Shown here: positions 1 through 5,200 of the stretch, piece after piece
Layout of the letters: each line of letters starts with the position of its first letter
Position numbering within the stretch: the stretch's first letter is position 1
DNA from: a virus
Direction: 5' to 3' (one strand)
Length of the DNA: 5,200 nt
IMG/VR virus record: IMGVR_UViG_3300045988_055167
Location: 1-5,200 of that record
The notes under the pieces: model-generated
Told to the model about the DNA's origin: nothing
The model's database searches: none
What the model saw: only the letters and a program-made list of their open reading frames with translations
Made by a program: the position numbers and the translations under genes

Positions 1-119
1 ACAGACAACTCTCCGCAGGGAAATACTGCCGCCTATTCTCTTACAGCGGATAGCGATGGCTCATTTTTGAAATCGTTTACAGAACATGGTATGGTCATTG
101 GCGTTATGTGCGCGCGCTA
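1..119 (+). repeat. Terminal redundancy, copy 1: identical to 5082..5200. A circular-genome wrap, not a biological DTR.
   Basis: Base-by-base comparison of 1-119 with 5082-5200 shows 119/119 identity. The offset of 5081 nt keeps the VP1 reading frame continuous. Confidence 0.95.
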
Positions 120-558
120 CAAGCATACCTACCAGCAGGGATTAGATAAGCGTTTTACTCGCAAAACGCGTTTTGATTACTATTGGCCGCTTCTTGCAAA
201 TTTAGGAGAACAGCCTATTTTGAACCGTGAAATCTATGCGCAAGGAACTGAAAAAGACGGCGAGGTATTCGGTTATCAGGAAGCATGGAGTGAATACCGT
301 TATAAGCCTGATATTTGTACTTCCGAGATGCGTTCAACTTATCCTCAGTCTCTTGACGTGTGGCATTTTGGCGATAATTACAAAACGCTTCCTACTCTTT
401 CGTCTGGATGGATACAGGAGGATATGAATAATATTAACCGCGCTTTGGCTGTTTCTAGTTCTGTAAGCAATCAGTTTTTTGCTGATATTTATATCAAAAA
501 TAAAGCTACGCGTGTTATGCCTGTTTATTCAATCCCAGGCATGCCAAGGACTCTGTAA
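1..558 (+). CDS. VP1: Major capsid protein VP1, C-terminal 185 aa (continuation of 3960..5081 across the circular junction). Stop TAA at 556-558.
   Basis: Frame 1 is open from position 1. The ORF-track fragment 67..558 (..FTEHGMVIGVMCARYKHTYQQGLDKRFTRKTRFDYYWPLL...NRALAVSSSVSNQFFADIYIKNKATRVMPVYSIPGMPRTL) is typical of the Microviridae F-protein C-terminus. Positions 1-119 are identical to 5082-5200, so this is the same gene as 3960..5200. Confidence 0.9.
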   Translation, partial: TDNSPQGNTAAYSLTADSDGSFLKSFTEHGMVIGVMCARYKHTYQQGLDKRFTRKTRFDYYWPLLANLGEQPILNREIYAQGTEKDGEVFGYQEAWSEYRYKPDICTSEMRSTYPQSLDVWHFGDNYKTLPTLSSGWIQEDMNNINRALAVSSSVSNQFFADIYIKNKATRVMPVYSIPGMPRTL

Positions 559-577
559 GTTTTTGCTTTTTATCTTT

Positions 578-599
578 CGCCCAGGTTGCAACCTGGGCG
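578..599 (+). promoter_or_regulatory. Perfect 22-nt palindrome / stem-loop (CGCCCAGGTT-GC-AACCTGGGCG) 20 nt downstream of the VP1 stop. Possible leaky terminator or mRNA 3' stabiliser.
   Basis: cgcccaggttgcaacctgggcg equals its own reverse complement: 9-10 bp GC-rich stem, 2-4 nt loop. It is followed by acgTTATTTg, which is only weakly U-rich, and then the VP2 RBS. Confidence 0.45.
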
Positions 600-623
600 A
601 CGTTATTTGAAAGGAGATTTAAT

Positions 624-1442
624 ATGGTTGATCCTTTAAAAACTGCTAAGCAGTATGCGGCTTATAATAATTCGTTATATCAGTCTAATACTCGACAGGC
701 TCAAGCGTTCAACGCCGCTGAGGCGGCGAAGAACCGTGATTGGCAGGAGCGTATGTCCAATTCTGCACATCAAAGAGAAGTTGCGGATTTGAAAAAGGCA
801 GGCCTTAACCCCGTCCTGTCTGCAGGCGGTCAAGGTGCCGCTACAGGTTCAGGCGCATCTGCCTCTAGCGAAGCTGCGAATGTAGATACATCGATGCCTC
901 AAGCTGTCATTGACATGGCAGAAGCACAGTTATCTAGTGCTACCGCTTTACAGCAGACCGCAATGACTACGCAGTCTAATATGGCGCAAGCTGTTCTTAA
1001 GTCTAATACTGATAAATATGTTGCTGGTTTACAATACAAGCTTCAAAAATATAAGCATGATAATCCTTCTGCCGATACTGTTGGCGGACAGTTTTCTCGT
1101 TTTCCTGATTTCCTTAAAATTGCTACTAAGTCCACTTTGGATTTTGTTGACTGGGTTGGAAAAGGACTTGAGAAAGCTGGATTTGATACTACTGGTTCCA
1201 AGAAGAAGAAAGCCGTTACAGGCTCTTCTGCTCGTGGTGTTAAAGGTTATAAGAATATTGACGAACTCATTGCTGATATTCCTGTTTACGATGAAAAAGG
1301 TCGTTTGATTTCTGGCGGTAAACAGAGAAAGAATGAAGCTCGCTTGAATCTTGGCTCTAAGTCATCAAATTCACCACTTGGTAGTAAATATCGCTTTGAT
1401 ACAATGGCTAGGTATCGCAGTAGTAAAAAACGTAAAAAATAA
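624..1442 (+). CDS. VP2: VP2 minor capsid / DNA pilot protein (phiX174 H-like), 272 aa
   Basis: ATG 624 with GAAAGGAGAT (AGGAG 612-616, 7-nt spacer). Contains the box WQERMSNSAHQREVADLKKAGLNPVLSAGG, which I recall as the conserved core of gokushovirus VP2. The rest is Ala/Gln/Ser-rich and low-complexity with a polybasic C-terminal tail (SSKKRKK), as is typical of pilot proteins. Position is immediately downstream of VP1. Confidence 0.85.
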   Translation: MVDPLKTAKQYAAYNNSLYQSNTRQAQAFNAAEAAKNRDWQERMSNSAHQREVADLKKAGLNPVLSAGGQGAATGSGASASSEAANVDTSMPQAVIDMAEAQLSSATALQQTAMTTQSNMAQAVLKSNTDKYVAGLQYKLQKYKHDNPSADTVGGQFSRFPDFLKIATKSTLDFVDWVGKGLEKAGFDTTGSKKKKAVTGSSARGVKGYKNIDELIADIPVYDEKGRLISGGKQRKNEARLNLGSKSSNSPLGSKYRFDTMARYRSSKKRKK

Positions 1443-1451
1443 CACGACACG

Positions 1452-1650
1452 ACGAATTAAACGACGTGACGTGAATAATTCGTTTTTATTGATGTTTTCT
1501 AAAACGCAGGACTTGTTCCTGCGTTTCCCCTAGGGGACTGGGGGATGGAGTCCCCCAGCCGGCTCTGCCGGGCACCTTTCCCCTCTTGATGGAAAGGTGC
1601 TAGGTGACACCTAACTAACAGTTAGTGATCACCGCGGTGAGACCGCGCCG
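1452..1650 (+). promoter_or_regulatory. Cluster of at least six stem-loops in the VP2-VP4 intergenic region. Candidate complementary-strand origin and/or terminators.
   Basis: Hairpins read directly from the sequence: 1452-1459/1476-1483 (acgaatta/taattcgt, 8 bp, followed by TTTTTATT). 1502-1511/1517-1526 (aaacgcagga/tcctgcgttt, 10 bp, loop cttgt). Palindrome ccccTAgggg at 1527-1536. 1538-1545/1551-1558 (ctggggga/tcccccag, 8 bp, loop tggag). Palindrome agccggct at 1557-1564. 1572-1581/1591-1600 (gcacctttcc/ggaaaggtgc, 10 bp, 9-nt loop). Composite 1603-1633 (ggtga..ctaact-aac-agttag..tcacc). Palindrome tcaccgcggtga at 1629-1640 and cgcgg-tgaga-ccgcg at 1633-1647. This is a local GC-rich island. 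Confidence 0.55.
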
Positions 1651-1660
1651 TAAGGCTTAC

Positions 1661-1689
1661 TTGAAAATTATAGAAAGGATTGATATAAT
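1661..1689 (+). promoter_or_regulatory. Sigma70-like promoter consensus TTGAAA-N17-TATAAT overlapping the VP4 translation start. Functional status doubtful.
   Basis: ttgaaa 1661-1666, 17-nt spacer, tataat 1684-1689. The predicted TSS (about 1696) falls downstream of the VP4 ATG (1691), which is inconsistent with serving VP4 unless VP4 starts later. May be a chance match in AT-rich sequence. Confidence 0.2.
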
Positions 1690-1690
1690 T

Positions 1691-2701
1691 ATGACGTGCT
1701 ACCATCCATTAAAGGCGTTTGCTACAGGAGAAAGGACTAAAAATGGAAAGATTAGTTATATTGTTACTGGCTACGATGCGCAAGCTATTATCATTGACGG
1801 GAAAGGTCATCGTACTGTGGTTGATTATAATCCTGAGTCTCGTGGTGATAAAGTTCTTCGTGATCCCATAGAGATACCATGTGGTAAGTGTTTTGGCTGT
1901 CGTTTGAAGCGTGCTAGAGATTGGTCTGTTCGCATGATGCTCGAATCAGAGTATCATGATGAAAATTGGTTTGTTACGCTTACATATAATAATGAACATT
2001 TACCTATGAATGAGTATATTGATGATGATGGTGTTATTCAGTTGAAATCTACGCTTTGTAAGCGTGATCTTCAATTATTTTGGAAGCGTTTACGTAAAAA
2101 ACAAGATATCAGATATTATGCCTGTGGTGAGTATGGGACAAGGACTGCGCGCCCTCATTATCACGCTGTTATCTTTGGACTCCATCTTGATCCAGATCGG
2201 CTTGTTGAGTACCGTTCACAACCTTTTCAGTTATGGACTTGTCCTGAACTTGAGGAAATTTGGAAGTGCGGATATGTTGTAGTCGGCAAGGTTACTCAAG
2301 AATCTTGTGAATATACTGCTCGGTACTGCATGAAGAAGCTTAACGGCTCTGCCGCTGAAATTTACGATCAATTTAATTTTATTCCCGAATTTTCATCTAT
2401 GAGTTTAAAGCCCGCGATTGGTCGCCAATGGTTTGACGATCATGCTTTTGATATTTACCCAAAAGATGAAATTCAATTACCTAAAGGACGTTTAGTGACA
2501 CCACCTAGATATTTTGACCAGTGCATGGAAAAATTGGATGAGGATTTGATGGTATCCGTCAAGGATGAACGAAAGGACATCGCCGAAAAGCTTGAGCATG
2601 CTAGACTGCTTGAAACTGCTTTGTCTAAGAGTGATTATCTCAAGGTTGCAGAAGCGAATATGAAGCAAAAAATGAAGCGTAAAGTTCGCCCTCTTGATTA
2701 G
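1691..2701 (+). CDS. VP4: VP4 rolling-circle replication initiation protein (phiX174 A-like HUH endonuclease), 336 aa
   Basis: The ORF track starts at a TTG/GTG at 1625, but the conserved N-terminus MTCYHPLKAF (M-x-C-x-x-P-L) begins at ATG 1691, with AAAGGA at 1674-1679. Zinc-ribbon-like PCGKCFGCRL. RCR motif I FVTLTYN. Motif II PHYHAVIFG (HxH). Motif III EYTARYCMKK (YxxxY...K, dual catalytic tyrosines as in phiX A protein). Stop TAG 2699-2701. Confidence 0.9.
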   Translation: MTCYHPLKAFATGERTKNGKISYIVTGYDAQAIIIDGKGHRTVVDYNPESRGDKVLRDPIEIPCGKCFGCRLKRARDWSVRMMLESEYHDENWFVTLTYNNEHLPMNEYIDDDGVIQLKSTLCKRDLQLFWKRLRKKQDIRYYACGEYGTRTARPHYHAVIFGLHLDPDRLVEYRSQPFQLWTCPELEEIWKCGYVVVGKVTQESCEYTARYCMKKLNGSAAEIYDQFNFIPEFSSMSLKPAIGRQWFDDHAFDIYPKDEIQLPKGRLVTPPRYFDQCMEKLDEDLMVSVKDERKDIAEKLEHARLLETALSKSDYLKVAEANMKQKMKRKVRPLD

Positions 2702-2765
2702 TTTGAATTTTTTCAAAAATAATTATGCCTTAATTATTGATTATAGGAATAGTTTTTGATAAGAT

Positions 2766-2797
2766 AAGAGTAACAAAAATGTTGCTCTTATTTTTTT
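2766..2797 (+). terminator. Rho-independent terminator-like hairpin plus U-tract after VP4
   Basis: aagagtaac (2766-2774), loop aaaaat, then gttgctctt (2781-2789): a 9-bp stem with one G-U pair, followed by A then TTTTTTT (2791-2797). The RBS of the 78-aa ORF starts at 2798, immediately after the T-run, so the terminator must be leaky if it is real. Confidence 0.45.
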
Positions 2798-2810
2798 GAA
2801 AGGAGACGTT

Positions 2811-3047
2811 ATGAATGAAGAGAAAAAAAGTTGTCAGGAAATCGAAGGATCGGAAGTTGTTTCGCCGGACGGCGAACAAGACAAAGAAAATGAACGTCAG
2901 CCCGCCCACCTTCCGTGGAGGGATTCGTTTGTAAATTGGATGCATGATTATGGAGAGTTGATCTCGGAGATTGTCCTGATGTGTTGTGTAGCTGGTGTAT
3001 GTTATTCAATGGTTTGTTTAGTGGAAATCATTTCACTGTTTGCTTAA
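2811..3047 (+). CDS. Hypothetical small tail-anchored membrane protein, 78 aa. Acidic N-terminal domain plus a C-terminal Cys-rich hydrophobic helix.
   Basis: ATG 2811 preceded by GAAAGGAGAC (AGGAG 2801-2805, 5-nt spacer), the same 9-mer seen upstream of VP1 and VP2. The ORF-track start at 2796 is a TTG and less likely. Sequence MNEEKKSCQEIEGSEVVSPDGEQDKENERQPAHLPWRDSFVNWMHDYGELISEIVLMCCVAGVCYSMVCLVEIISLFA. Residues 53-78 form a predicted transmembrane segment. The stop TAA (3045-3047) is immediately followed by the AGGAGG RBS of the next gene, suggesting translational coupling. No homolog recalled. Confidence 0.55.
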   Translation: MNEEKKSCQEIEGSEVVSPDGEQDKENERQPAHLPWRDSFVNWMHDYGELISEIVLMCCVAGVCYSMVCLVEIISLFA

Positions 3048-3059
3048 GGAGGTCTATTG

Positions 3060-3335
3060 ATGAAAAGTCCTATTTTTACTGTAAAAGATAATTTAGTTGG
3101 TTTTAATTCGCCGTATATCCGTATGAATGAACGCGTTGCTATTCGCGAGTTTCGAACTATGATTGATGATCTCGATGATAAAGGCGATCATTCTGTTTTT
3201 GATTTAGGTTTGTACTGTGTTGGTACTTTTGATTTGGAGACAGGTGTTATTGAATCCCATGATCCGCAGGTCGTTCTTCTTGCTACGCAGTGGTTGACGT
3301 TATCTCCTAAAGAGGTAGGTGAGATTGATGATTAG
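3060..3335 (+). CDS. VP5: Conserved gokushovirus small protein (VP5-like), 91 aa
   Basis: ATG 3060 with AAGGAGG at 3046-3052 (7-nt spacer). The pattern IFTVKDNLVGFNSPY...AIREF...DLGLYCVGTFDLETGVI matches the F-x-V-x-D-N-x-x-G-x-F...A-I-R-x-F...P-x-D-F-x-L-x-x-x-G-x-F-D-x-x-T-G-x-I consensus I recall for the small ORF5/VP5 family of Gokushovirinae. Stop TAG 3333-3335 overlaps the VP3 start by 8 nt. Confidence 0.62.
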   Translation: MKSPIFTVKDNLVGFNSPYIRMNERVAIREFRTMIDDLDDKGDHSVFDLGLYCVGTFDLETGVIESHDPQVVLLATQWLTLSPKEVGEIDD

Positions 3336-3870
3336 AACTCTTTTTGGCATTTTGCAGGATATCCCAGAGATGCGCGTTACTGTTTTTTCGTCCGCTGGTT
3401 CGCCTGTTAAAGATAAGTTTATCATGGAGGTTACGTCCAAAGGATATCCGAGTTTACGTAAGACTGGACAGCATAATGTTTATGATGAAATTCAGAGTTA
3501 TCGCGAAGGATGTGACCTTGCGGCAATTCTTCAGTCTTTTGGTAATGAATGTCCTAGGTTTGATCCTCTTTGTTTTGAACAAGCGGAGGCGTTTGTAAAT
3601 GATTTCAGTGATGTTTCTAGTCTCGGCGATCTTGTCAATGACGGTGAAGCTGTCAAACAGTTCTTTAATGAGCTTCCGTTGGAGGTTCGTAACTGTTTTG
3701 ATAATAGCGTTCATAAATTTGCTCGTGATTTTACTGGTGAAGGATTCCTTCAGACTCTTAGGCAGGCGTTTAATGTGCCAGATACTCCAGAGCCTTCCCC
3801 GAATCCTCCGACCCCTAGTGAACTTAATCCTGACAGCGGCTCTGTTGATCCTGATTCTGGCACTGCTTAA
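3328..3870 (+). CDS. VP3: VP3 internal scaffolding protein, about 180 aa, acidic, with a Pro/Ser/Asp-rich C-terminal tail
   Basis: The ORF is open from 3319 (GTG), but ATG 3328 with GGTGAG 5 nt upstream is the preferred start, and the exact start is uncertain. The segment YREGCDLAAILQSFGNEC...FNELPLEVRNCFDNSVHKFARDF resembles the Chlamydia-phage VP3 core as I recall it (FKDECDINQILKKYQRTG...FLTLPAHIREKFGNDP). Net acidic. Lies directly upstream of VP1. Stop TAA 3868-3870. Confidence 0.7.
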   Translation: MIRTLFGILQDIPEMRVTVFSSAGSPVKDKFIMEVTSKGYPSLRKTGQHNVYDEIQSYREGCDLAAILQSFGNECPRFDPLCFEQAEAFVNDFSDVSSLGDLVNDGEAVKQFFNELPLEVRNCFDNSVHKFARDFTGEGFLQTLRQAFNVPDTPEPSPNPPTPSELNPDSGSVDPDSGTA

Positions 3871-3918
3871 TCTTATATTCATTATTATTGTGTTTTCCAT
3901 GTTTTTCATTTTTGGTTA

Positions 3919-3936
3919 AGGGGGCGGAAGCCCCCT
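3919..3936 (+). promoter_or_regulatory. GC-rich stem-loop with a GNRA-type loop (AGGGGGC-GGAA-GCCCCCT) between VP3 and VP1, 10 nt upstream of the VP1 RBS
   Basis: agggggc / gccccct form a 7-bp G/C stem with tetraloop ggaa. It shares the G5/C5 stem character of the 1538-1558 hairpin. Position is just downstream of the VP3 stop; may be a leaky terminator, an RNA stabiliser, or a protein/packaging recognition element. Confidence 0.45.
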
Positions 3937-3959
3937 CTTCCGTATAGAAAGGAGATCAA

Positions 3960-5200
3960 ATGTTAGATAATAACTCAAAATTTAGTTACGTTCCTGGAAC
4001 GCGCGCAAGTCGTTCTATTTTTGATTTGAGTAACAGTGTTAAAACGTCATTCGATGCCGCCCAGCTCGTTCCTTTTTACTATGAGGAAGTTCTGCCCGGA
4101 GATACTTTTAATCTCGAAACGAATCTCATTGCCCGTATGCAGACTCTTGTTGCTCCTGTAATGGATGATCTTTACCTTGATTTCTTCTATTTTTTCGTCC
4201 CTAACAGAATCGTTTGGGATCATTGGAAGGAATTTATGGGTGAAAATACGAAGTCGGCATGGTACCCGGAAACGGAGTACAACGTGCCGCAGATTTCGGT
4301 CGCTCCATCTAAATCTGTAGCCGCTAAGTCTGTAGCGGACTATTTCGGCATTCCGCCGATTACTGTTCCGCAGGGTGAAAAGAACGCTTTCACTTTTTCC
4401 GCCCTTCCTTTCCGCGCCTACGCGGAAATCTGGAATGAATGGTTCAGAGACGAAAATCTGCAGGATCCAGTTCTTGTGGATCACGGAGATTCTACGCATA
4501 CATATGACGCAAATTCCGCTGTAGATGGTGGTGCTTTGCTTTATGCAAATAAGTACCATGACTATTTCACGAGTGCTCTTCCTTCGCCGCAGAAGGGCGC
4601 AGATGTGACAATCCCTATTGGTACTATTGCGCCTGTATATCCTACTAATGCGTCACAGCTCGGTAATGTTGAGAAGACATACCCTGTTTCTGTTCTTGAG
4701 TGGCGTAACTCTAATGATGCTGCCCTTCCGGCTCGTGGTGGTTTAGGTATTTTAGGATCTGGTGCTACTGATCCGTCCGGTTTGGCTGGTGTTACGTTTC
4801 TTGATCAGGAAGATAATGCTGGTATTTCCGGTAGTCCATATCCATCTAATCTGATCGCAGATATCGGATCAATTCCTTCTACATCTATCAATCAGCTTCG
4901 TTTGGCGTTTGCAACACAGGCTCTTTTAGAGAAAGATGCTCGTGGTGGAACTCGTTATCGTGAGATTATTAAGTCTCATTTTGCGACTAACTCCCCAGAT
5001 GCTCGCCAGCAGGTTCCAGAGCTTTTGTCATATAATCGTGTCCCGATCCAGATCAATCAGGTGGTTCAGAATTCGTCTAGTACAGACAACTCTCCGCAGG
5101 GAAATACTGCCGCCTATTCTCTTACAGCGGATAGCGATGGCTCATTTTTGAAATCGTTTACAGAACATGGTATGGTCATTGGCGTTATGTGCGCGCGCTA
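3960..5200 (+). CDS. VP1: Major capsid protein VP1 (phiX174 F-like jelly roll), N-terminal 413 codons. The ORF runs off the window end with no stop and continues in frame across the circular junction into 1..558; 5082..5200 duplicates 1..119. Full gene = 3960..5081 + 1..558 = 559 aa.
   Basis: ATG at 3960 preceded by GAAAGGAGAT (AGGAG 3950-3954, 5-nt spacer). Translation MLDNNSKFSYVPGTRASRSIFDLSNSVKTSFDAAQLVPFYYEEVLPGDTFNLETNLIARMQTLVAPVMDDLYLDFFYFFVPNRIVWDHWKEF... is the highly conserved gokushovirus VP1 N-terminus. No in-frame stop through 5200. The frame is continuous with ORF 1..558 once the 5081-nt period is taken into account. It is missing from the ORF track only because it has no stop inside the window. 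Confidence 0.93.
   Translation, partial: MLDNNSKFSYVPGTRASRSIFDLSNSVKTSFDAAQLVPFYYEEVLPGDTFNLETNLIARMQTLVAPVMDDLYLDFFYFFVPNRIVWDHWKEFMGENTKSAWYPETEYNVPQISVAPSKSVAAKSVADYFGIPPITVPQGEKNAFTFSALPFRAYAEIWNEWFRDENLQDPVLVDHGDSTHTYDANSAVDGGALLYANKYHDYFTSALPSPQKGADVTIPIGTIAPVYPTNASQLGNVEKTYPVSVLEWRNSNDAALPARGGLGILGSGATDPSGLAGVTFLDQEDNAGISGSPYPSNLIADIGSIPSTSINQLRLAFATQALLEKDARGGTRYREIIKSHFATNSPDARQQVPELLSYNRVPIQINQVVQNSSSTDNSPQGNTAAYSLTADSDGSFLKSFTEHGMVIGVMCAR
5082..5200 (+). repeat. Terminal redundancy, copy 2: identical to 1..119.
   Basis: See copy 1. Confidence 0.95.

Follow-up and report, generated by a model that had tools for sequence, protein, structure and literature searches.

A 5,200-nt stretch of viral DNA (IMG/VR record IMGVR_UViG_3300045988_055167, positions 1 to 5,200; hereafter the window) raises two questions: whether it is a complete circular microvirus genome read past its own start, and whether that virus is a free phage or an integrated one. 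We conclude that the window is very probably a complete 5,081-nt circular gokushovirus genome, a free or episomal copy, from a lineage that can integrate at a dif-like site, probably by means of the host Xer system. Its features are collected in Table 1.

Table 1. Features of the window, in order of position
Feature	Position	Strand	Basis or remark
Assembler wrap-around	1..119	.	Duplicate of 5082-5200; true genome is 1-5081
VP1, 3' part with stop codon 556-558	1..558	+	In-frame continuation on the circle; 120-558 completes 559 aa
GC-rich 10-bp hairpin, terminator- or attenuator-like	577..600	+	VP1-VP2 gap; terminator scan
VP2, DNA pilot / minor capsid protein, 272 aa	624..1442	+	PHROG profiles
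Large intergenic region, about 8 consecutive hairpins	1443..1690	+	Fold and conservation
Conserved hairpin GCACCTTTCC-cctcttgat-GGAAAGGTGC, then TAGGTGACAC	1572..1610	+	Candidate viral-strand origin or VP4 recognition element
VP4, rolling-circle replication initiator, 336 aa	1691..2701	+	REP_ORF2-G2P 1.5e-18, phrog_942 2.5e-116
attP, dif-like: AAT-TATGCCTTAAT-TATTGA-TTATAGGAATA-GTT	2721..2754	+	Non-coding, after VP4
Intrinsic terminator, stem and run of 7 T	2761..2797	+	Directly after attP; RNA fold -17.5 kcal/mol, z = -6.2
Orphan gene, 78 aa	2811..3047	+	Intact in 7/7 related genomes; dN/dS 0.17-0.54
VP5, 91 aa	3060..3335	+	Phage_ORF5 6.3e-15, phrog_1670 4e-15
VP3, internal scaffolding protein, 180 aa	3328..3870	+	Chlamy_scaf 3.8e-19, phrog_1642 1.7e-16
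VP1, major capsid protein, 5' part	3960..5200	+	Phage_F 2e-163, phrog_514 3.5e-210

The window closes into a 5,081-nt circle

Positions 1-119 and 5082-5200 are exactly identical, and the two ends share no overlap longer than these 119 nt. Trimming one copy left a single 559-codon ORF (3960..5081 continuing into 1..558), the in-frame passage of VP1 across the ends that the original prediction had described. ENA contig k119_213717 (5,200 nt) contains an identical 5,081-nt unit that begins at window position 378 and has a 119-nt overlap; a 5,136-nt scaffold of a separate assembly contains it too, beginning at position 629 and with an overlap of 55 nt. In k119_184566, a variant 96-99% identical to the window, the 5,081-nt unit has a 119-nt overlap and a third breakpoint. 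The IMG/VR genome L001, 87% identical to the window, is continuous across the window's 5081/1 junction. Overlap length equalled the assembler k-mer size in each case (119, 119 and 55); the 'k119_' prefix follows the MEGAHIT naming convention, and 55 is a usual final k of SPAdes. Because other contigs open this circle at other breakpoints, with overlaps that track k, we attribute the 119-nt repeat to assembler overlap rather than to chance or to a biological repeat.

It is next to inconceivable that the identity is instead a genuine terminal repeat of a linear element, or that the window was cut from a tandem concatemer or prophage. Some phages do have terminal direct repeats, and in two related contigs (L049 and L062) another phage end lies upstream of the prophage, but three other breakpoints occur among the recovered copies of the unit, and beyond unit and overlap the source contigs have no flanking sequence. 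The variety of breakpoints and the k-tracking overlaps led us to reject these origins. The earlier description of a 5081-nt circular replicon linearised with overlap therefore holds, with the same unit size in other assemblies and the source contigs giving circle plus k-mer overlap where a true direct repeat would have had different flanks.

The closed circle, seen in several independent linearisations, lies within the range of about 4.4-6 kb expected of a gokushovirus; microvirus genomes have a median length of 5,078 nt (PMC9239249). Its coding strand is T-rich (31.5% T), a composition typical of Microviridae that is in itself no proof of an ssDNA virion.

Gene content and placement within Gokushovirinae

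Profile matches recovered the gene set first proposed (VP1, VP2, a VP4 HUH Rep, VP3 and a VP5-like gene), VP1 and VP4 both giving strong matches to Microviridae, and the gokushovirus set of VP2 pilot, VP3 internal scaffold and VP5 is present in full (pilot-protein PHROGs, Chlamy_scaf and Phage_ORF5). The six real genes all lie on the plus strand, as had been claimed; two long antisense ORFs are interrupted by stops in relatives, have no family match and were discounted as spurious. No recombinase or integrase was found among the six genes, and no remaining ORF of the genome matched an external scaffold (D) or spike (G) gene.

In the PDB, VP1 matched 8DES_A at 7.5e-136 and 9CGM_A at 1.4e-114, as against 1.7e-5 for a phiX-type F protein (1M06_F). 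Full-length identity to VP1 of Chp2, SpV4 and phiMH2K is 39-42%, compared with 27% over 91 residues to phiX174 F, and the variability profile places a hypervariable surface-loop region at about 4600-4860. VP1 is thus an F-type capsid protein nearer to gokushovirus VP1 than to phiX174-type F, with a variable surface insertion. The phylogeny called for at the outset, here a neighbor-joining tree, nests VP1 among the gokushoviruses. The nearest GenBank genomes, Dulem virus 193 (PP511346, lemur faeces) and Microviridae sp. MG945526 (pig faeces), have VP1 proteins 67% identical to that of the window; by this distance, and its position inside Gokushovirinae, we regard the virus as new at the species level, within a group that is known and very large.

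VP2 matched 16 PHROG families (best overall 6.5e-40), the annotated ones being pilot protein for DNA ejection; dN/dS is 0.02-0.15 for VP2 and 0.02-0.04 for VP4. VP4 carries both motifs of an HUH initiator, the HUH motif itself (HYHAVIF, 2156-2176) and a two-tyrosine motif (YTARYCMKK, 2312-2338), which align with HFHAVHF and YVAKYVNKK of the phiX174 A protein, as well as FVTLTY (1970-1987). From what is known of the family, VP4 would nick the replicative form and drive rolling-circle synthesis, and a single strand would be packaged in a T=1 VP1 capsid with the assistance of the VP3 scaffold.

The 78-aa orphan protein has an acidic N-terminal half and a hydrophobic C-terminal segment. Searches of Pfam and PHROG gave no match, and only 2 homologous clusters occur among 1.8 billion representatives. 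The orphan is a real, lineage-specific gene. The hairpin in the VP1-VP2 gap has a predicted RNA fold of -19.3 kcal/mol (z = -5.2).

A conserved hairpin in the VP2-VP4 spacer is a candidate replication origin

The spacer between VP2 and VP4 contains the most conserved part of the genome: in the block 1478-1650, 85-97% of columns are invariant, versus about 70% in genes. As ssDNA the spacer folds at -62.6 kcal/mol versus -26.9 for shuffles (z = -10), and its hairpins 1 and 4 show compensatory changes. It had no match in Rfam.

One of these hairpins, a covarying one, has CTTGAT as part of its loop. This hexamer is enclosed by a perfect stem of 10 bp or more in 32 of 47 gokushovirus loci, Chp2 included, with 14 distinct stem sequences; none of 470 shuffles exceeded 7 bp, and seven control hexamers gave no such stems. 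The phiX174 A protein nicks CAACTTG^ATA, and VP4 may nick the CTTGAT loop in much the same way. The hairpin is presented here as a candidate replication origin. Its orientation is inverted in two clades; if it is the origin, those phages would package the strand complementary to their mRNAs.

Related phages are integrated at a dif-like site in Clostridia

Phages 82-85% identical to the window are inserted at a matching near-palindromic Clostridia site in at least three independent metagenome contigs (four records). In L002 and L065 the phage is bracketed by a 35-bp repeat with bacterial genes on the flanks, and both junctions are present. The empty site, which defines attB, is found in L071, from the same host species as L065. 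Positions 1-6439 of L065 match 6491-12929 of L071, and 11562-12364 match 12895-13697, so the insertion is exact. Each insertion leaves an intact host site on one side (attL) and a phage-type site on the other (attR), with the phage terminator (2761..2797) just inside attL. The stem of this terminator covaries (GTAAC/GTTGC, GTATC/GATAC and GCATC/GATGC in L049 and L062).

The attP of the window has an 11-6-11 layout (left arm 2724-2734, centre 2735-2740, right arm 2741-2751), and its 17 centre-proximal nt match host attB exactly (6e-7 expected by chance). Over the attP region the window and L001 are 100% identical, in spite of about 87% identity between the genomes, which indicates selection on attP. 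With 5 of 11 positions of the left arm mismatched to the host arm, and 2 of 6 between the two centres, integration may be inefficient. In L049 and L062, attR consists of the window-type arm, TATTGA and host flank, joining the window's exact left arm, centre and 40 nt of upstream flank to host DNA; the attP allele of the window has therefore integrated. In L065 the host centre TTATGA is kept in attL and the phage centre TATTGA in attR, and in L049 attR has the host T, the phage-specific G of the right arm having stayed with the phage. Were the lineage taken as a Xer/dif user, these junctions would map the crossover to a 6-nt interval, with strand exchange expected at the boundary of centre and right arm, as in other Xer-exploiting elements.

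The host, an uncultured Clostridia gut bacterium, is known from metagenomic contigs alone. We assessed its site by the dif criteria of PMC3025954. It is an 11-6-11 near-palindrome with inner CATAA..TTAT and arms TATTCC...GGAATA, and is kept at a syntenic position in an 86%-related species. Host genes converge on it, and GC and AT skew change sign there, although within the available 15-21 kb the skew signal is confounded with the orientation of the genes. About 9 kb from the site is a gene for a Xer-family recombinase, whose scores fall below all curated cut-offs (XerS, 142 bits versus 267; XerC, 124 versus 335; XerD, 121 versus 330). In a different Clostridia MAG, a second gokushovirus, only 52%-related, adjoins a site whose outer arms are the same. 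Since the phage lacks an integrase and the host site has dif hallmarks, we infer that host Xer recombinase(s) would carry out the integration.

The original prediction held that integration could not be assessed from the window. For the window by itself this is correct, but integrated relatives sharing the attP sequence made an assessment possible. The exact strain has been seen only as closed circles, and its exact VP4 in four contigs, all of genome length. The choice it left between a free phage and an integrated microvirus becomes a free or episomal circle from a lineage able to integrate.

Weighing other accounts of the integrated relatives

That only circles of this exact strain are seen would also fit a strictly lytic free phage whose dif-like site has decayed or become non-functional while other members of the lineage integrate. 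The degenerate left arm of attP agrees with such an account, as does the absence of dif motifs from most gokushoviruses (PMC7062461). We regard it as unlikely, because a decayed site would not be expected to appear, with its flank, fused to host DNA in L049 and L062, nor to be preserved intact between the window and L001 under selection.

It is a little less probable still that a non-Xer recombinase performs the integration and that the host site is an ordinary attB. The nearby recombinase misses every curated Xer cut-off, and both the use of Xer at this site and a single-copy, terminal position of the site are presumed. Against this, the phage encodes no recombinase, the 11-6-11 architecture with its inner motif is typical of dif, the site is conserved between species and sits at a convergence of gene orientation and skew, and the distantly related gokushovirus beside the same outer arms points the same way. 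Integration of the lineage through host Xer at a dif-like site thus remains our preferred reading. The broader proposition, that the CTTGAT-loop hairpin (1572-1600) is the viral-strand origin of the Gokushovirinae and that this lineage is, in addition, a microvirus exploiting the Xer/dif system of a Gram-positive gut anaerobe, is put forward tentatively, as a possibility about which we have more doubt than confidence.

Significance and comparison with known systems

By itself, the window adds one complete gut microvirus genome to the thousands that exist. Gokushoviruses are among the most abundant gut viruses and, to our knowledge, their integration had been shown experimentally in Enterobacteria only. 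Their hosts are mostly only predicted, as Clostridiales via CRISPR spacers (PMC10159846). Through the empty and occupied sites, one specific, prevalent Clostridia species is now linked to a gokushovirus lineage, and the attP, attB, attL and attR sequences with which Xer-mediated lysogeny could be tested in a Gram-positive anaerobe are available. If the proposed reading is true, microvirus use of Xer/dif in a Gram-positive gut anaerobe would be documented with both empty and occupied sites, and the CTTGAT-loop hairpin offers a concrete gokushovirus origin candidate that can be tested by synthesis.

The virus resembles Chp2, SpV4 and phiMH2K in its homologous VP1 (39-42%), VP2, VP3 (Chlamy_scaf), VP4 and VP5 and in lacking external scaffold and spike genes, and shares the CTTGAT-loop hairpin with Chp2. 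Those genomes are smaller (4.4-4.6 kb), VP3 follows VP2 in Chp2 and phiMH2K, and their hosts are intracellular or wall-less bacteria in which, unlike the present lineage, only lytic forms are known. Dulem virus 193 has the same gene order (VP1-VP2-VP4-small ORFs-VP5-VP3) and, like MG945526, a structured spacer upstream of VP4 with a hairpin flanked by TAGGTGAC; its hairpin loop is a variant (CTCTCGTT). Both differ from the window at the species or genus level, and the attP core 21-mer is absent from both.

The closest parallel in lifestyle is with the enterogokushoviruses (EC6098; Kirchberger & Ochman 2020, PMC7062461), which likewise lack an integrase and carry a dif-like motif in a short non-coding region. 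They integrate at dif via XerC/XerD, so that the bacterial dif lies upstream of the prophage and the phage dif-motif downstream of it (PMC7062461). In both systems the prophage lies between a conserved bacterial dif, a probable one in the present lineage, and a more variable phage motif. Xer dependence has been demonstrated for EC6098 in E. coli only (PMC7062461) and is predicted for the lineage of the window. Free circles and integrated forms are known in both. The present lineage differs in its host, an uncultured Gram-positive Clostridia rather than Enterobacteriaceae, in its dif sequence family (TATTCC...GGAATA arms) and in genome size (5.08 kb versus 4.3-4.7 kb).

Xer-exploiting elements of the CTXphi, VGJphi and TLCphi type are small, ssDNA or dsDNA, and insert at the chromosomal dif; like the present virus they lack an integrase and carry a dif mimic. 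Unlike the filamentous CTXphi type, the virus described here is an icosahedral microvirus, and its attP appears, as far as can be judged at the nucleotide level, to be an ordinary duplex site in the replicative form. It shares with CTX-type elements a central region mismatched to that of the host and the possibility of tandem arrays.

A closed circular gokushovirus genome

The first and last 119 bases of the window are identical, constituting its longest terminal overlap. When one copy is cut and the ends are joined, a 559-codon ORF at 3960-5081 continues into 1-558. Look-up with the window's own proteins retrieved the same circle opened at other points: the ENA contig k119_213717 (5,200 nt, 119-nt overlap, 100% identical) begins at window position 378, and a scaffold of another assembly (5,136 nt, 55-nt overlap, 100% identical) begins at position 629. 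A third k119 contig, a variant 96-99% identical, has a different breakpoint again. The source runs are those of assemblies ERZ27229761, ERZ27229685 and ERZ28573246. The overlap length tracks assembler k-mer size, and the 'k119_' prefix is MEGAHIT naming. Because the same circle recurs with other breakpoints and k-sized overlaps, a genuine repeat with different flanks in the source contig is excluded; L001, an IMG/VR genome 87% identical, also reads continuously across the 5081/1 junction. We conclude that the 119-nt overlap arose artefactually in the assembly of a closed circle, as expected from the original prediction of a circular replicon linearised with overlap. The near-identical variant L078 is 99.5% identical over window 1-3095 and 95.7% identical over 2979-5197, a mosaic pattern pointing to recombination among strains that circulate together.

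Full-length VP1 shares 39-42% identity with its counterparts in three classical gokushoviruses, Chp2, SpV4 and phiMH2K, versus 27% over only 91 residues with phiX174 F, and a neighbour-joining tree nested it among gokushoviruses. The top solved structures are gokushovirus capsids (8DES_A, 7.5e-136; 9CGM_A, 1.4e-114). In GenBank the closest genomes come from faeces of pig, dog and lemur, with VP1 identity of 65-67%, and IMG/VR and metagenome contigs include genomes 82-88% identical at the DNA level, among which the VP1 surface-loop region (window 4600-4860) is hypervariable. The window genome is a new species-level gokushovirus of a very large known group, in a gut setting. A VP1 relative with 37% identity was also present in an actinomycete isolate assembly (L044, Nocardia aurantiaca NZ_WMBB01000035; 1,963 nt, coverage 1.5), where contamination is more likely than a Nocardia phage.

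Gene content

Pfam and PHROG matches bore out the predicted gene set of VP1, VP2, VP4 with HUH motifs, VP3 and VP5 on one strand, and the matches of VP1 and VP4 to Microviridae profiles confirmed the family. With the circle closed and the gene set and placement established, the prediction was right in both observation and interpretation. VP4 carries FVTLTY, HYHAVIF (HUH motif) and YTARYCMKK (two-tyrosine motif); in the phiX174 A protein, HFHAVHF and YVAKYVNKK align with the latter two.

Features of the window genome and of related loci
Feature	Location	Strand	Sequence, match or character
VP1 capsid, 559 aa	3960-5081 + 1-558	+	Phage_F 2e-163; phrog_514 3.5e-210
VP2, 272 aa	624-1442	+	pilot-protein PHROGs, best 6.5e-40
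VP4, 336 aa	1691-2701	+	REP_ORF2-G2P 1.5e-18; phrog_942 2.5e-116
Orphan gene, 78 aa	2811-3047	+	N-terminal half acidic, C-terminal segment hydrophobic
VP5, 91 aa	3060-3335	+	Phage_ORF5 6e-15
VP3, 180 aa	3328-3870	+	Chlamy_scaf 4e-19
GC-rich hairpin after VP1	577-600		
VP2-VP4 spacer, 248 nt	1443-1690		GC-rich
CTTGAT hairpin	1572-1610	+	GCACCTTTCC-cctcttgat-GGAAAGGTGC, then TAGGTGACAC
Intrinsic terminator	2761-2797		-17.5 kcal/mol, z = -6.2
Inverted CTTGAT hairpins	L025 486-526; L026 1078-1111; L027 4615-4648; L031 101-138; L040 64-101		
attP	2721-2754		AAT TATGCCTTAAT TATTGA TTATAGGAATA GTT
attB	L071		AAC TATTCCCATAA TTATGA TTATAGGAATA GTT
Host site, candidate dif			TATTCCCATAATTATGATTATAGGAATA
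attL	L065		full host site, then phage
attR	L049, L062		phage left arm, phage centre TATTGA and right arm, then host

The first gene past attP and the terminator encodes a 78-aa orphan. All seven related genomes keep its ORF unbroken, and its dN/dS is 0.17-0.54 compared with 0.02-0.29 in core genes; it is a real gene and is under purifying selection. The protein had no match in Pfam or PHROG, and a search of 1.8 billion representative proteins yielded just two homologous clusters. A role in lysis, exclusion or lysogeny is possible.

A hydrophobic 106-codon ORF (3599-3919) in the VP3 +1 frame, which is open in 7/7 genomes, resembled the overlapping lysis gene E within D of phiX174. When VP3 synonymous codons were permuted, the expected longest open run was 111 codons (90 observed, P = 0.67), with 3.2 stops expected and 2 observed. 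Since permutation predicts as much, the ORF is a by-product of VP3 composition, and we rejected it as a lysis gene. Antisense ORFs of 170 aa (4047-4559) and 151 aa (3454-3909) were also rejected, being broken in several relatives and lacking a PHROG match; the coding strand is T-rich (31.5% T). With these remaining ORFs spurious, all genes lie on a single strand.

Conserved hairpins and a candidate replication origin

Conservation along the genome peaks in the VP2-VP4 spacer, where 85-97% of columns are invariant across seven genomes with an overall divergence of 12-18%. About eight tandem hairpins form in it (z = -10), two of which show compensatory changes. Strong structure upstream of VP4 is also common among distant relatives, and most relatives have comparable structure there. 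An Rfam scan of the whole window (E <= 1) gave no match.

One spacer hairpin presents CTTGAT in its loop. Of 47 gokushovirus loci, 32 have a perfect stem of 10 bp or more (10-18 bp) around CTTGAT, Chp2 (L074 2904-2941) among them, typically 60-350 nt upstream of VP4. Because differing loop lengths made a column-wise covariation count on the alignment unusable, we counted stems in each sequence and compared them with shuffles and control hexamers. None of 470 shuffles exceeded 7 bp and seven control hexamers gave none. The stems vary between lineages and comprise 14 distinct sequences, with conservation of the CTTGAT that ends the loop and of the 3' flank GTGACAC. The phiX174 origin is nicked within CAACTTG^ATA, and the resemblance of the loop to this sequence makes a role as viral-strand origin attractive; by this analogy, the hairpin is a candidate origin. 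Caution is warranted because the whole element lies on the strand opposite to the genes, still beside VP4, in five loci from two divergent clades, and because the hairpin loop differs in Dulem virus 193. If the element is the nick site, these five phages would package the antisense strand; otherwise it functions independently of orientation. We found no description of a gokushovirus origin hairpin in the searchable literature, which is absence of evidence only. In ssDNA phages of other kinds and in rolling-circle plasmids, hairpins serve as complementary-strand origins, and by analogy the spacer may also hold one.

Two other signals in the spacer gained no support. CTTACTTGA (1658-1666), also found in Dulem virus 193, was considered as a phiX174-like nick sequence, and ACTTG occurs upstream of VP4 in 7/36 loci, about the chance level, which gives no support for a general motif. 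A near-consensus sigma-70 match at 1661-1689 (11/12 positions) lacks credibility as a VP4 promoter: its -10 element ends one base ahead of the VP4 ATG, and relatives do not share its -35 element. The 10-mer CCCTCTTGAT of the hairpin loop (1581-1590) is repeated at the end of VP4 (2689-2698), about 22 nt before attP. This second copy is coding and kept in all relatives; some 12 such 10-mer pairs are expected by chance at this genome size, and the repeat may mean nothing.

A GC-rich hairpin follows VP1, and an intrinsic terminator whose stem covaries among relatives lies directly past attP. In a prophage, the latter would stop read-through from the host LysM gene.

Related phages occupy a Clostridia host site

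The original prediction took integration as not assessable from the window. This applies to the window by itself; relatives found at a host site allowed it to be assessed, with the window's exact strain observed as circles only. The IMG/VR record L002 (6,903 nt) exceeds genome length and contains one phage genome between 35-bp direct repeats, outside which lie genes for an ABC-2/YhgE permease, a LysM protein and a DUF4854 lipoprotein. The repeat corresponds to window 2720-2754, in the spacer past VP4. A metagenome scan with the 20-nt core recovered a longer version of this locus (L065, 12.4 kb), occupied sites in other assemblies (L049 and L062) and free, genome-length copies (L051 and L054); the remaining matches were chance ones within membrane-protein genes. 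The empty site was reached via the host YhgE/Pip protein (99% identical, same species): in host contig L071 the phage is absent and 238 nt separate the LysM and DUF4854 genes, with attB at 12896-12929. L065 1-6439 aligns with L071 6491-12929, and L065 11562-12364 with L071 12895-13697; the insertion is therefore exact.

The run shared by attP and attB is 17 nt, with a chance expectation of 6e-7 in the window genome. The attR junctions of L049 and L062 are identical to the window in left arm, centre and upstream flank; therefore, the window's attP allele has integrated. A VP1 search of contigs of GTDB species representatives found no close integrated relative; its hits were limited to a Clostridia MAG (52% relative) and a Nocardia contig of 2 kb. 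Among named YhgE/Pip homologues, the nearest, from Butyricicoccus sp. and an uncultured Eubacterium sp., are 59-61% identical.

Two irregularities were observed at the junctions. In L049 (6232-6339, minus strand) and L062 (6502-6598, minus strand), the 3' end of another VP4 and an attP-type junction precede the full prophage. Tandem prophage arrays occur in CTX-type elements, and the extra VP4 end reflects either tandem prophages or co-assembled circular and integrated forms. The attL also differs between assemblies of the same locus: L065 (6405-6439) retains an intact host site with centre TTATGA, and L002 (1228-1262) has the phage-type centre TATTGA and the final base of the phage arm. This could stem from attL-attR gene conversion, from rounds of excision and re-integration, or from collapse of the repeat in assembly.

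The host site is probably dif

Several features suggest that attB is probably the dif site of the host. It is an 11-6-11 near-palindrome with inner bases CATAA...TTAT, a pattern shared by the dif sites of E. coli and B. subtilis; the Frankia dif-site quoted in PMC3025954 also fits. Genes converge at attB (plus strand upstream, minus strand downstream), and GC and AT skew switch sign there in three contigs, a signal confounded with gene orientation. The site is kept at the syntenic position in another species (L072 and L073, YhgE/Pip 86% identical). About 9 kb away, between miaA and a Glug-domain gene, lies a gene for a 383-aa Xer-family tyrosine recombinase (L071 2501-3652; L072 2501-3640), and xerC genes tend towards dif proximity (PMC3025954). 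XerS is its best match, full length and under the curated cut-off; given also the near-palindromic site, the host may have a Xer system with a single recombinase. The phage itself encodes no recombinase among its genes.

The junctions allowed the crossover to be mapped. The host centre is kept in attL and the phage centre in attR, and in the L049 junction, with right arm TTAGAGGAATA, the phage-specific G at right-arm position 4 stays phage-side. These observations confine the crossover to the final three centre bases and the initial three right-arm bases, an interval that includes the expected cleavage position of a recombinase bound to the right arm. The attP and attB centres mismatch at 2/6 positions. 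In known Xer-exploiting elements, mismatched centres favour a single pair of strand exchanges; by extension, integration would proceed by one strand-exchange pair, then be resolved by replication.

A similar arrangement was seen in a Clostridia MAG (L043 9020-9057), where a 16-6-16 inverted repeat, ATAACTATTCCTAAAA-TGATGG-TTTTGGGAATAGTTAT, lies immediately upstream of a gokushovirus 52% identical in VP1 (small basic ORF, VP5, VP3, VP1). Its outer arms, AACTATTCC...GGAATAGTT, are the same as those of the host site used by the window's lineage, which suggests that dif targeting is widespread in Clostridia-infecting gokushoviruses. Separately, environmental, phage-unrelated contigs (L061 2031-2059, L064 and L070) contain GACTATTCCTATATTGATTATAGGAATAGTT, which is almost a perfect palindrome and has its right arm and TATTGA centre in common with attP; it may be the dif of other bacteria.

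The window genome is ordinary in kind, a complete circular gokushovirus; what rises above routine is the evidence on host and lysogeny, along with a testable candidate for the replication origin. Earlier work has reported or predicted both microvirus prophages in Firmicutes and, for gut gokushoviruses, Clostridiales hosts (PMC9239249, PMC9753089, PMC10159846), so our results extend existing knowledge and come as no surprise. The layout, in which the bacterial dif precedes the phage and a phage motif of greater variability follows it, is the same as in enterobacterial gokushoviruses, and for those phages dependence on XerC/XerD has been proven (PMC7062461).
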